Positions 5,381-7,126 of a DNA stretch of 14,967 bases are shown here, in pieces. A model generated the notes under the pieces. It did not search any database and had not been told where the DNA came from. It worked only from the letters and a program-made list of their open reading frames with translations. Origin of the DNA: a virus; UHGV virus genome UHGV-1809322; one strand, written 5' to 3'. How positions within the stretch are numbered: position 1 is the stretch's first letter; every line of letters starts with the position of its first letter. A program made the translations under genes and the position numbers.

Positions 5381-6910
5381 TTACTTGGGGTTCTGAATTT
5401 GTGTATACGTTGCTCTTGAGATAAACGGCGCATTATCACCAATTGACGTGATTAATACCGTCGGTATGCCATTTTTCAACTCATCTTCTTTACCCAGCGT
5501 CCAGGTAATTACAGCCGTGTTGTTTGCGATTGGGATCGCATTCACGCCAGGGAGTTTAGGTATATTCGTTAGCAACTCATTGGCTTCAATTTCCGCCTGA
5601 GTCTTCACAGTAGTCCATTTACCTGAAACTTCGTCCACTCGTTCTTTTATGTCAGCCAATGCAGGAAATGCCTGCTCTGTTAATTTGCCTGCTGCGTCTT
5701 TTACATAGGGTATATCGGCAAGACAACTAACATTTCTGGCAGAAATACACCCCACCGTTTCCGCTGCAGTGCTTAAAGTGGGATTACCTTTTACAATCTC
5801 ATTCACCGAATTTTGCGCATCCTGAATGAGTACGTTGCCTGAGGACTTGAGGAATGCGTCAGTTATTGCCTGCTCATCACCACCAGCTGCAGCAACAGCA
5901 ACTCCGCCTACAGCGCCCGCAATGGCGGCTTTCTTGACGACCTCTGTGATTGTGCCTGTCGGCATACCATTAACAATAGAACCGCCTTGTTGTTGCACCG
6001 CCGCAAGAACACCTGCACGTATAGCGGCATTTATGTCACCGGTCATTCGCAGGGTTTTCCATGATGCAATGGCTGCCGCGCCAGCCGGTCCTCCATAAAA
6101 CGCGGCTGCAGACGTAGCAGCCATATCCAGGACGTGACTTTCCTGAGTTGCTTTGAAAAAATTATCTTCAGTATTATGAAGTGGTGCCACTGTAGTGGAC
6201 CAGATCGCATCAATTATTTTACCTTCACGGGCCTGATTCTCGGCTTTCTTCAATAACTCATACTGTGCACTCAATTCATTCCCAGCAAAGTGCGCAATAG
6301 CTGTACCAGCTTCAGTAATATCGTTAAAACTTCTTTGAGCTTGATTGCTAATGTCTTTCCACGCTTTGTCGTAAGTGCTGGCAATATCATCGAACGCTTT
6401 TACAAACGTTCTCGTTGCATTATCGACTGTTTTCTTAACCACTTCGATTTGGCGGCTTGTTTCGCCAACAACTATTTTAGACACGGCACCAACTGTGTCT
6501 TTAAATGGGTCCGTGCCACTATTAGAACCAAATACCTGATCCCAAGTAGGTAAATTGGGCAGATTCGGTAGATTGGGTAAGTTAGGTAAATTAGGTAGAT
6601 TAGGTAAGTTGGGCAGATTGGGTAATTTAGGGAGATTTGGTAGTTGAGGAAGACCAGGAATATCCGGGAGACCCAAAAGGCCAAATTTTTGCATCTGCTG
6701 CAGATGCATTCGCTCAGAGATATTGCTTTCTGTAGTCTGTGTTGGTTGTGGCTGCTGAGGTAGTGAAGCAGAGGAATAGGCATAACCTGGTGAGCATATG
6801 ATTGTTATATTTGGAATCATCACTGTTTTTGCATCCTCTGCAAATGATAATCCCGGCCCCAGCGCAAGAGCGATTGCACTTAACTGCATAAACCTGTTGG
6901 TACTTTTCAT
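5381..6910 (-). CDS. Secreted repeat-containing protein (509 aa): signal peptide, (Leu-Pro-Asn)n proline-rich tandem repeat linker, large C-terminal domain with Gly/Ala-rich hydrophobic segments
   Basis: SD GGGGAGGG ~9 nt upstream of the ATG. Signal peptide MKSTNRFMQLSAIALALGPGLSFA followed by EDAK. Repeat GLPDIPGLPQLPNLPKLPNLPNLPNLPNLPNLPNLPNLPNLPT. Hydrophobic Gly/Ala-rich stretches (ATSAAAFYGGPAGAAAIASW; KKAAIAGAVGGVAVAAAGG). Confidence 0.75.
   Translation of the reverse strand: MKSTNRFMQLSAIALALGPGLSFAEDAKTVMIPNITIICSPGYAYSSASLPQQPQPTQTTESNISERMHLQQMQKFGLLGLPDIPGLPQLPNLPKLPNLPNLPNLPNLPNLPNLPNLPNLPTWDQVFGSNSGTDPFKDTVGAVSKIVVGETSRQIEVVKKTVDNATRTFVKAFDDIASTYDKAWKDISNQAQRSFNDITEAGTAIAHFAGNELSAQYELLKKAENQAREGKIIDAIWSTTVAPLHNTEDNFFKATQESHVLDMAATSAAAFYGGPAGAAAIASWKTLRMTGDINAAIRAGVLAAVQQQGGSIVNGMPTGTITEVVKKAAIAGAVGGVAVAAAGGDEQAITDAFLKSSGNVLIQDAQNSVNEIVKGNPTLSTAAETVGCISARNVSCLADIPYVKDAAGKLTEQAFPALADIKERVDEVSGKWTTVKTQAEIEANELLTNIPKLPGVNAIPIANNTAVITWTLGKEDELKNGIPTVLITSIGDNAPFISRATYTQIQNPK
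6549..6647 (-). repeat. Imperfect 9-bp tandem repeat array (~11 units, GGYARRTTN on the + strand) encoding the (LPN)n tract of the 509-aa protein
   Basis: Consecutive units ggtaaattg, ggcagattc, ggtagattg, ggtaagtta, ggtaaatta, ggtagatta, ggtaagttg, ggcagattg, ggtaattta, gggagattt, ggtagttga. Most unit-to-unit differences are synonymous in the minus-strand frame. Confidence 0.9.
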
Positions 6911-7024
6911 GATAGCAATCCCTCCCCAACCCCGAATTCGAATGGTTTCTGCGGAGAAAATTTATAGCCGCATAAATAATAATTACGTCAGGGTATTTTC
7001 CATTCCATAATAAAAAACTCTTAT

Positions 7025-7054
7025 AAACACTAAGCGATTCAGACTTTAGTGTTT
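7025..7054. promoter_or_regulatory. 9-bp perfect inverted repeat (AAACACTAA-N12-TTAGTGTTT) in the divergent intergenic region; candidate operator
   Basis: Lies between the divergently oriented 509-aa gene (-) and the first structural-operon gene (+). ATTCAGAC occurs twice nearby (7037-7045 region and 7069-7077 region). Confidence 0.35.
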
Positions 7055-7126
7055 GCTTCACGCTCTCAATTCAGACCGGTGCATTTGCGTTAGCCTCAGT
7101 CAAAATTCACTGCTGGATCACACGTT

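Follow-up and report, generated by a model that had tools for sequence, protein, structure and literature searches.

The 509-aa protein and its cassette

The window, by which we mean the whole stretch of DNA analysed (14,967 nucleotides), has as its surroundings a ~96-kb P1-like phage-plasmid of E. coli. The local order is a gene for a 509-aa protein, a gene for a 197-aa partner, an isrK-like RNA, a C4 RNA, a 162-aa ORF, and an anti-repressor. The first two genes constitute a low-GC, co-inherited accessory cassette, and the larger of them contains, on its coding strand, a tandem array of proline-rich tripeptide units (Table 1).

Table 1. Coordinates of the array and of the cassette features around it
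Feature	Coordinates	Strand	Residues	Basis or remark
509-aa ORF containing the array	5381..6910	-		Exported protein, uncharacterised family
Sec-type signal peptide, MKSTNRFMQLSAIALALGPGLSFA then EDAK	6839..6910	-	1-24	Read directly from the translation
Conserved N-terminal motif PNITIICSPGY	6782..6814	-	33-43	Alignment; common to Enterobacterales members
Three degenerate units, LPD IPG LPQ, upstream of the core array	6644..6670	-	81-89	
Core array of eleven 9-bp units, LPN LPK (LPN)x8 LPT	6545..6643	-	90-122	Tandem Repeats Finder and codon-register listing
Conserved C-terminal region	5384..6505	-	~136-509	Alignment, AlphaFold2 model
Downstream partner gene (197 aa), predicted Tse1/Tae1-like papain-fold peptidoglycan amidase fold	4758..5351	-		Signal-peptide-like N-terminus

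The 509-aa protein belongs to a family that has no Pfam match and comprises at least 554 clusters (50% identity), and searches of Pfam, NCBIfam, PHROGs, and PADLOC returned no real family for it. Its C-terminal region combines helical repeats of the 11-residue type with Ala/Gly-rich helices and with an alpha/beta part in which two cysteines (C388 and C396) are conserved. The AlphaFold2 model is poor overall (mean pLDDT 57.6); the Ala/Gly-rich helices are its most confident part (pLDDT 80 to 92), and residues 16 to 118 adopt no regular structure (pLDDT <50). A Foldseek comparison of this model with the PDB gave no match (best E = 2.5), and a PDB profile search gave insignificant ones only (a designed helical bundle, apolipophorin-III, and an LLP homolog; E = 0.07 to 0.3). 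Two family members, P0031 and P0090, are fused to OmpA-type peptidoglycan-binding domains. An envelope role for the protein is likely, as judged from its signal peptide, the conserved Cys pair, the OmpA-type fusions in relatives, and an exported partner with a Tse1/Tae1 fold.

The structural model of that partner matches the Tse1 fold (Foldseek probability 1.0, E = 5e-5, TM 0.68 to 0.76). The corresponding profile match is weak (E = 0.03 to 0.05) and aligns the partner segment GHGHVALV, with its invariant His136, to the Tse1 segment YGHVAVV, which we take to hold the catalytic His91; a near-invariant Cys58 begins a predicted helix. Tae1/Tse1 amidases are delivered by type VI systems without a signal peptide, whereas all 11 partner homologues begin with a signal-peptide-like hydrophobic segment that is followed by an invariant Cys. 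The window holds no type VI genes, and among the loci compared a vgrG lies nearby only in Acinetobacter. A literature search on Sec-exported Tae1-like proteins in prophages yielded nothing relevant.

With the 509-aa protein as single query, searches of species-representative genomes and IMG/VR found no close relatives; a profile search of the genome collection recovered only distant homologues (rhizobia, Variovorax, and Bacteroidota), and one of IMG/VR recovered none. An exact 23-nt flank pattern had 0 matches in JGI metagenomes and 0 in IMG/VR, and megablast and tblastn found no homologue of the gene in the phage collection. Neither the gene nor the element occurs in 5,426 complete E. coli genomes, in which only the Dam region was matched, at 75%. 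A full-text literature search found no paper on LPN repeats.

Synonymous divergence among the repeat units

Tandem Repeats Finder placed the array at 6547-6643 with a period of 9, 10.8 copies, and 70% matches, and the periods of 18 and 27 that it also reported are the same array. The preliminary description of this DNA had proposed about eleven 9-bp units encoding a tripeptide repeat. The repeat is real, and the codon register on the minus strand, a strand that the description had left unnamed, gives exactly eleven in-frame units; the coordinates proposed for it, 6549-6647, cover the same object and lie ~4 nt out of that register. With the degenerate units upstream, the full tract amounts to 14 consecutive phi-P-x triplets (aa 81 to 122), a run of 42 residues with Pro at every third one. 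Eight consecutive units read exactly LPN, and Asn fills the third position of 9 of the 14. The LPD unit in the upstream part is the counterpart of a conserved GLPD anchor that is present in homologues too. We rejected assignment of the tract to leucine-rich repeats, given the absence of the LxxLxLxxN pattern, and to collagen-like (Gly-X-Y)n repeats, given that the 11 core units contain no glycine.

Measured against the consensus CTACCTAAT, the eleven core units carry 16 synonymous and 2 non-synonymous differences, and a binomial expectation of 30% synonymous among random single-base changes makes this imbalance highly improbable (P = 2.8e-7). We therefore regard the peptide repeat as being under purifying selection. 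Extending the comparison to all 14 units gives 19 synonymous and 9 non-synonymous differences (P = 3e-5). Apart from the K and T units, the per-position table confines the differences to unit positions 1, 3, 6, and 9, and a hand count from it gives transitions for 13 of the 18 unit differences. These counts uphold two earlier proposals, namely that the units differ mainly at synonymous positions and that selection acts on the protein-level repeat: the conserved thing is the peptide repeat, not the DNA repeat. The further proposal that exact DNA identity is avoided gains no support, since ordinary synonymous drift after an old expansion suffices.

Mean pairwise identity between units is 0.769, against 0.758 +/- 0.029 expected under independent synonymous codon choice for L-P-N. 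We dropped the reading that this agreement with the random-codon expectation reflects complete saturation of the synonymous sites, because the codon set is non-random and transitions are in excess; of nine Leu codons, seven are TTA or CTA, the rarest Leu codons of the window (P = 3e-5). The non-random codons and the excess of transitions fit a history in which one unit was duplicated and its copies then underwent neutral synonymous drift under protein constraint. No additional selection beyond that protein-level constraint is needed to explain the unit differences.

Copy number in the lineage and the linker in the family

Exact look-ups of the 509-aa protein and of three neighbouring genes yielded 16 independent records, all of which carry an identical 129-nt block. 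Seven belong to haplotype 1, six to haplotype 2, and three are disrupted by an insertion sequence; haplotype 2 departs from haplotype 1 at 14 sites, every one of them elsewhere in the gene, and each complete gene copy encodes 509 aa. The element interrupting the gene in the three disrupted records is IS1203, and the gene must therefore be dispensable for plasmid maintenance. Divergence among the 16 records does not exceed 0.9%, and because they sample a young, low-diversity lineage, their invariance is weak evidence of long-term stability. The units themselves are poor substrates for slippage, as exact in-register matches extend to 11 nt at most, and to 8 nt between adjacent units. A contingency locus would be expected to show near-perfect DNA units and copy-number differences among close relatives; here the units are 70% alike, and the 16 records do not differ. 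The idea that copy number is a mutational hotspot thus fails for the present-day lineage, in which both haplotypes share the same block and slippage substrates are poor. The length polymorphism anticipated between related elements is likewise absent within the lineage, and at a deeper level it is present, the linker being hypervariable across the family.

The nearest homologues (P0001 and P0002, 73% identical) lack the array, and what lies between their GLPD and LP[ST]W anchors is either short or unrelated in sequence; linkers in the closest relatives span 22 to 46 residues of quite different sequence. In the sequences compared, no part of the family varies more than the linker, and the alignments show the array as a lineage-specific expansion that grew from an LPx seed flanked by two conserved anchors, GLPD and LPTW. 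No run of at least three phi-P-x units occurs in 181 of the 191 family members scanned, so the tract is not needed for the core function. Some distant members do have arrays with Pro at every third residue, located at this N-terminal position and likewise encoded by degenerate codons (P0044, 11 units; P0095, 10; P0173, 14), and LPN/LPD/LPK-type motifs recur in the linkers of the distant homologues P0034, P0029, P0044, and P0095. Two of nine near-identical proteins of the Raoultella lineage lack a "PI" unit, and the P0001 gene, of which one DNA copy was read, has a perfect 6-bp CCAATTCCAATT repeat exactly at the site of this indel.

Possible roles of the tract

The reading that we favour, to which we would assign about even chances, is that the array is a stiff polyproline-II-type stalk in an exported, cassette-encoded envelope protein, with its copy number fixed and its peptide held by selection. 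The array arose in this lineage when an LPx seed between GLPD and LPTW expanded; purifying selection has since maintained the peptide while its synonymous sites drifted. Copy number is now fixed, and the DNA copies have become too dissimilar for slippage. With Pro at every third residue, we infer that the tract would adopt an extended left-handed polyproline-II helix of three residues per turn, although the low pLDDT is just as compatible with a flexible, disordered linker. In such a helix Leu, Pro, and Asn would each occupy one edge, and the resulting stalk, semi-rigid and amphipathic, would measure ~10 nm for 11 units and ~13 nm for 14, at 3.1 A per residue. On our assumption that it is a spacer between two anchored ends, it would keep the short PNITIICSPGY module and the Ala/Gly-rich C-terminal domain a fixed distance apart in the periplasm, a task comparable to that of the TonB spacer or of streptococcal XPZ. 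That array length tunes the reach of the C-terminal domain, as the preliminary description suggested, is plausible.

With a copy number that is fixed rather than variable, the LPN tract is a fairly ordinary proline-rich linker. The chief competitor to the stalk is a passive, flexible, low-complexity sequence, the tolerated by-product of an old replication-slippage expansion, whose length and rigidity have no specific function. The homologous linkers are hypervariable in length and sequence and mostly lack periodic proline, residues 16 to 118 are modelled with a pLDDT <50, and the gene is dispensable, all of which would suit such a sequence. An unconstrained linker, however, should gather amino-acid changes, and here 16 of 18 unit differences are synonymous, with eight straight LPN units; in distant members, too, periodic Pro arrays recur independently at this position. 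We accordingly judge the passive linker unlikely, if by some way the most serious of the alternatives. The tract could instead serve as a multivalent docking surface, its repeated LPxLP motifs and leucine stripe binding the co-encoded amidase, peptidoglycan, an outer-membrane protein, or another copy of itself. In its favour are the strict conservation of all three unit residues, the related motifs in distant homologue linkers, and the co-inheritance with an exported partner. Yet in Acinetobacter and a metagenome contig the amidase is paired instead with a Cys-rich protein that is unrelated and lacks such an array, most family members lack the array, and none of the tools that we used predicted a binding partner, and docking strikes us as rather improbable.

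Two further readings place function or change in the DNA. A contingency-type locus, at which frequent copy-number changes from one related element to another tune the protein, would account for the expansion relative to the nearest homologues and for the in-frame indel at a perfect 6-bp repeat among the Raoultella proteins, but the identical block in all records of both haplotypes largely refutes it for this lineage; the units are too dissimilar, with at most 8 nt of exact match between neighbours, and on/off switching is impossible because the unit length is a multiple of three. We consider it very unlikely. An array with regular periods of 9 and 18 bp, carried on a plasmid-borne element, might also call to mind a DNA-level element within the gene, such as the iterons, partition sites, or other protein-binding 9-mers of a plasmid-prophage. 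Unit differences at synonymous positions, a DNA identity no higher than coding constraint gives, and the occurrence of the cassette without the array in a Raoultella chromosome and on other replicons leave this reading with practically no credit.

Position offers a more speculative view of the cassette as a whole. In P1 the order is simC-simB-simA-c4 RNA-icd-ant (PMC10695390). The two-gene cassette occupies the same position as sim, and both consist of non-essential accessory genes for exported proteins, export in the cassette being read from sequence. No sequence likeness to sim was detected, neither cassette protein matching any P1 family in PHROGs. Enterobacter kobei phage-plasmids carry the cassette at a different site, and it also occurs outside phages. 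P1 Sim is located in the periplasm. By analogy with the position of sim, placement upstream of c4-icd-ant suggests that the 509-aa protein may act in superinfection exclusion. The 509-aa protein and the Tae1-like amidase might even constitute, at the P1 sim position, a hitherto undescribed type of envelope module in temperate elements, in which the (LPN)n stalk determines how far across the periplasm a membrane-active Ala/Gly-rich domain, or the amidase, can act; we think this improbable, somewhat more so than docking. Such a module could block DNA entry by superinfecting phages, for example, or remodel the wall, and array length would be a functional ruler matched to envelope geometry. Wider interest lies in the surroundings, where the array marks an uncharacterised family without a Pfam model, found here with an exported Tae1-fold amidase at the P1 superimmunity position, and should the pair prove to be an exclusion or envelope-remodelling system, stalk length becomes a testable design parameter.

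Known proline-rich repeats provide useful comparisons for the favoured stalk. The sole family match of the repeat was to NCBIfam NF038253, the XPZ segment of streptococcal beta/BAC (residues 82 to 140 against profile positions 869 to 923, E = 1.7e-5), and since it scored 22.9 bits against a cut-off of 1700, we regard the likeness as compositional rather than homologous. XPZ, the proline-rich repeat region of the group B streptococcal beta protein (Bac), resembles the LPN tract in being a stretch of tens of residues, within an exported bacterial protein, in which exactly every third one is Pro, and going by the title of Areschoug et al. 2002 (J Bacteriol 184:6376) it takes up the polyproline II structure. 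Its third position alternates between positive and negative charge, and it belongs to a wall-anchored Gram-positive protein; the LPN tract, in contrast, is uncharged, has a hydrophobic stripe, and lies in a Gram-negative Sec-exported protein. The (Glu-Pro)n(Lys-Pro)n spacer of TonB, a second proline-rich segment of a Gram-negative envelope protein, is rigid and extended, differs in length among species, and is believed to bridge ~10 nm of periplasm from its anchored end to a functional C-terminal domain. It is charged, has a dipeptide period, and follows an N-terminal inner-membrane anchor, whereas the 509-aa protein has a period of three and an N-terminus that looks like a cleavable signal peptide, and the two proteins have no sequence relationship.

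Pertactin of Bordetella, also an exported Gram-negative protein with a tripeptide proline repeat, has copy numbers in its region 2, (Pro-Gln-Pro)n, and in its region 1, (GGxxP)n, that are polymorphic between circulating strains, the classic instance of the length polymorphism that the preliminary description anticipated, whereas the LPN array is invariant in 16 records and its DNA units are degenerate. The LPN array is a worked example of a peptide repeat that is under strong purifying selection and whose DNA copies have drifted apart, which makes it stable, not hypermutable, and it cautions against taking every coding tandem repeat for a contingency locus. The same family supplies the contrast, in that the sole indel seen among near-identical proteins falls at a perfect 6-bp repeat.

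Composition and codon use of the repeat array

Tandem Repeats Finder reported a sole array in the window (6547-6643; period 9, 10.8 copies, 70% matches, with periods 18 and 27 also scoring), which lies inside the longest open reading frame (ORF) of the region, encoding a 509-aa protein. Read in frame on the minus strand, core units 1 to 6 are CTACCAAAT, CTCCCTAAA, TTACCCAAT, CTGCCCAAC, TTACCTAAT, and CTACCTAAT, and units 7 to 11 are TTACCTAAC, TTACCCAAT, CTACCGAAT, CTGCCCAAT, and TTACCTACT. With the looser units ahead of this core, the full tract comprises 14 hydrophobic-Pro-any (phi-P-x) triplets at aa 81-122. The preliminary description concerned the same object, offset by 4 nt and with its strand unstated, and its 9-bp tandem repeat encoding a tripeptide stands, with 11 in-frame units.

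Features of the region, in window coordinates
Feature	Position	Strand	Remarks
Fused Dcm-Dam DNA methyltransferase	82-2316	+	runs off window start
162-aa ORF, then anti-repressor	3084-4372	-	after the C4/isrK RNAs
C4 antisense RNA	4418-4505	-	Rfam gathering-score match
isrK-like RNA	4530-4605	-	Rfam gathering-score match; directly downstream of cassette
197-aa partner gene	4758-5351	-	signal-peptide-like N terminus
509-aa gene	5381-6910	-	contains the array
LPN core array	6545-6643	-	in frame; LPN LPK (LPN)8 LPT
Looser units ahead of core array	tract reaches 6670	-	LPD IPG LPQ
PAAR-motif protein, 94 aa	7127-7411	+	opens tail-gene block, divergent from repeat-bearing gene

The units differ mainly at synonymous positions, as had been claimed. 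Measured against a consensus unit of CTACCTAAT, the 11 core units carry 16 synonymous and 2 nonsynonymous differences (binomial P = 2.8e-7, under a null in which 30% of random single-base changes in the consensus unit are synonymous), an imbalance that confirms the accompanying claim of selection at the protein level; adding the three flanking units gives 19 synonymous versus 9 nonsynonymous (P = 3e-5). With the K and T units set aside, variation is confined to unit positions 1, 3, 6, and 9, and transitions account for 13 of the 18 differences among units (hand count from a per-position table). Compared in pairs, the nine LPN units are on average 0.769 identical, and the expectation when Leu, Pro, and Asn codons are drawn independently from window codon usage is 0.758 +/- 0.029. 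At the level of pairwise identity, the DNA repeat is a mere shadow of the peptide repeat. The further suggestion that DNA identity is actively avoided finds no support, since drift under a peptide constraint needs no such selection.

The codons of the LPN units do differ from a random draw. TTA and CTA, the least used Leu codons across the window's genes at a combined 14%, supply seven of the nine Leu positions (P = 3e-5); the rest of the 509-aa gene has them at 8 of 27 Leu codons. The excess could have been inherited from the ancestral unit, or it could slow the translation of the linker. The simplest history would be that one unit, YTA-CCY-AAT, was duplicated and then drifted synonymously while the peptide was constrained.

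Copy number in the lineage and linkers across the family

Eight contigs encode the exact 509-aa protein. Because length variants are invisible to an exact protein look-up, we searched instead with three neighboring proteins, of 197, 94 (PAAR), and 251 aa, and read the size of the adjoining gene, which gave 16 distinct records drawn from NCBI and Logan assemblies and from ENA metagenome assemblies. Seven of these carry haplotype 1, identical to the window gene; six carry haplotype 2, with 14 substitutions and no gaps (99.085% identical); and three match the window gene exactly over nt 1-731 and then run into an insertion sequence. The 129-nt repeat block is identical in 16 of 16 records, all complete copies encode 509 aa, and the comparison of copy number across these records and two haplotypes yielded no length variant. 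The same records vary elsewhere, as seen in the lengths of neighboring proteins (603 or 604, 267 or 278, and 785 or 872 aa). Inside the array, exact matches in register extend to 11 nt at most, and to only 8 nt between adjacent units. Because the block is identical throughout and exact matches are this short, the LPN array is stable and its copy number fixed within a young lineage (divergence at most 0.9%), and the proposal of a present-day hotspot for length change is not supported.

Thirteen of the 14 sites that separate the haplotypes are synonymous. All 14 fall within gene nt 618-1149 (window 5762-6293), leaving the first 617 nt and last 380 nt without a difference, a clustering that suggests a recombination tract together with strong purifying selection on the Ala/Gly-rich core. 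In three independent records (loci L037/L047, L038/L048, L049, and L026), the gene is broken after nt 731 (window ~6180) by an IS3-family element with 100% identity to Escherichia coli IS1203 copies. The sequence beyond the insertion was read in one record (L026); there the gene picks up again at nt 1405 (window ~5506), having lost nt 732-1404. The 509-aa gene is dispensable for maintenance of the element.

Full-length homologs, 50-73% identical, occur in Raoultella, Klebsiella, Buttiauxella, and Enterobacter, and those of rhizobia, Ralstonia, Variovorax, and others match over only the C-terminal ~70% of the protein. An exhaustive profile search defined a large family (proteins P0001-P0054 and P0089-P0225) that numbers 554 clusters at 50% identity; for 295 of these, E does not exceed 1e-30. 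No Pfam family was found for the core of any member. Many members carry tandem 11-residue repeats with weak apolipoprotein-type matches (in P0052, DTGKAIEKGTQ stands six times in tandem), and others have further Cys-containing C-terminal extensions.

The Enterobacterales members have in common a signal peptide, the conserved motif PNITIICSPGY, and a conserved domain of about 370 aa, with a linker that is hypervariable in both length and sequence. Between the anchors, the window protein reads GLPD-IPGLPQLPNLPK(LPN)8-LPTW, homolog P0002 reads GLPDIDILPDLGKGFSQLPSW, and homolog P0001 has a different Pro-Ile/Pro-Leu tract ending in NLPTW. Because these linkers differ so sharply, the LPN array is a lineage-specific expansion. 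At least three consecutive phi-P-x units occur in only 10 of the 191 family proteins scanned, and long Pro-every-third arrays stand at the same N-terminal position in the distant members P0044 (11 units, its DNA also degenerate at synonymous sites), P0095 (10), and P0173 (14). Close relatives in the family show a single indel, in a Raoultella cluster where one "PI" dipeptide unit is missing from two of nine near-identical proteins (variants P0070 and P0071); the site is a perfect CCAATTCCAATT repeat in the gene of P0001 (L052 6001-7548; one DNA copy read). In this family, the one such indel thus falls on a perfect DNA repeat, and the degenerate LPN repeat shows none.

Proposed working of the repeat

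What is established for the repeat is that its peptide is under purifying selection, that it expanded in this lineage within a hypervariable linker, that its copy number is fixed, and that the protein bearing it is exported. The AlphaFold2 model of the 509-aa protein is poor (mean pLDDT 57.6), confident only in Ala/Gly-rich helices (aa ~270-350) and the C-terminal part and without predicted structure at residues 16-118, and a Foldseek search of it against the PDB found nothing. Proline at every third residue would favor a polyproline-II helix with three residues per turn, in which Leu, Pro, and Asn would each line one edge; with a rise of 3.1 A per residue, its length would be about 10 nm for the 11 core units and about 13 nm for all 14. 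Distances between envelope layers in E. coli are comparable with about 10-13 nm.

The closest precedents are the TonB spacer and XPZ, a region of the streptococcal beta protein described as proline-rich and repetitive. XPZ, for which the title of Areschoug 2002 states a polyproline II structure, was the only family match of the repeat; the LPN tract has the defining periodicity of XPZ-type regions but lacks their charge pattern and homology to them (22.9 bits versus a cut-off of 1700), and it differs from the TonB spacer in periodicity. It is best described as a variant of the periodic proline-rich spacer. Collagen-like and leucine-rich repeat readings were rejected, and the literature covered by our full-text search holds no mention of an LPN repeat.

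From the Pro-every-third periodicity and the XPZ and TonB precedents, we therefore favor, at about even probability, a semirigid stalk holding the N-terminal PNITIICSPGY module apart from the C-terminal domain; that the array sets the reach of this domain, as previously proposed, is plausible. We consider it unlikely that the tract is a flexible linker with no function, and quite doubtful that it presents a multivalent LPxLP docking surface. A hypervariable contingency locus is highly improbable, since the array lacks both properties that define such a locus, with units only 70% alike and a block identical in 16 records, and a DNA-level element embedded in the gene is scarcely conceivable. The semirigid stalk remains our preferred reading.

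The cassette and its element

A more interesting lead than the repeat is the cassette that contains it, which joins an uncharacterized envelope family to a predicted signal-peptide-bearing Tae1-fold amidase, in the sim position of a P1-like phage-plasmid. The window is part of an element of ~96 kb whose tail and head genes are of P1 type; phrog_1036 (tail sheath) and phrog_1114 (PmgG-like protein) were matched in PHROGs. Across the tail genes, Enterobacter kobei plasmids of 95-109 kb are about 74% identical to it in DNA sequence. E. coli is the host, because a 99%-identical copy of a neighboring protein, on a 96,177-bp contig, is named E. coli and the IS1203 copies match those of E. coli exactly. 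The fused Dcm-Dam methyltransferase occurs in 785-aa or 872-aa versions in different records.

A gap of 30 nt separates the 509-aa gene from the 197-aa gene downstream, and the GC content of this two-gene cassette (window ~4500-7100) is 43-48% versus 52-54% in the flanking tail genes. The two genes are also found together in a Raoultella chromosome, flanked by metabolic genes; on a plasmid-like contig that also encodes ParA and UmuC; and at another position in an E. kobei phage-plasmid, with a partner of 54% identity. The pair behaves like a "moron," a mobile accessory cassette. The isrK-like RNA, C4 RNA, 162-aa ORF, and anti-repressor constitute a P1 immI-type operon. Because simC-simB-simA lie just upstream of c4 in P1 (table, PMC10695390), the cassette is a positional analog of the P1 superimmunity genes, to which it has no detectable homology.

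Modeled with AlphaFold2 (pLDDT 75.9), the 197-aa partner matches Tse1/Tae1, a peptidoglycan amidase effector of type VI secretion (Foldseek probability 1.0, E = 5e-5, target TM-score 0.68-0.76), and a sequence profile aligns its invariant GHGHVALV (His136) with the Tse1 segment YGHVAVV, which holds the catalytic His91. The partner is thus a predicted Tae1-fold amidase, and it is unusual for a phage-plasmid to encode such a fold behind a Sec-type signal. Two members of the 509-aa family (P0031 and P0090) carry an OmpA-type peptidoglycan-binding domain at the C terminus, and the combined clues from element, cassette, partner, and OmpA domain place the 509-aa protein in the cell envelope. In Acinetobacter baumannii and one metagenome contig (L056 2212-4639 and L057 2153-4588), the gene ahead of the same Tae1-like protein encodes an unrelated exported protein (about 610 aa) with Cys-rich "GPxGPGPC" repeats and C-terminal "NPGQIxGG" repeats; in Acinetobacter, a vgrG gene follows the pair at a distance of 1.6 kb.
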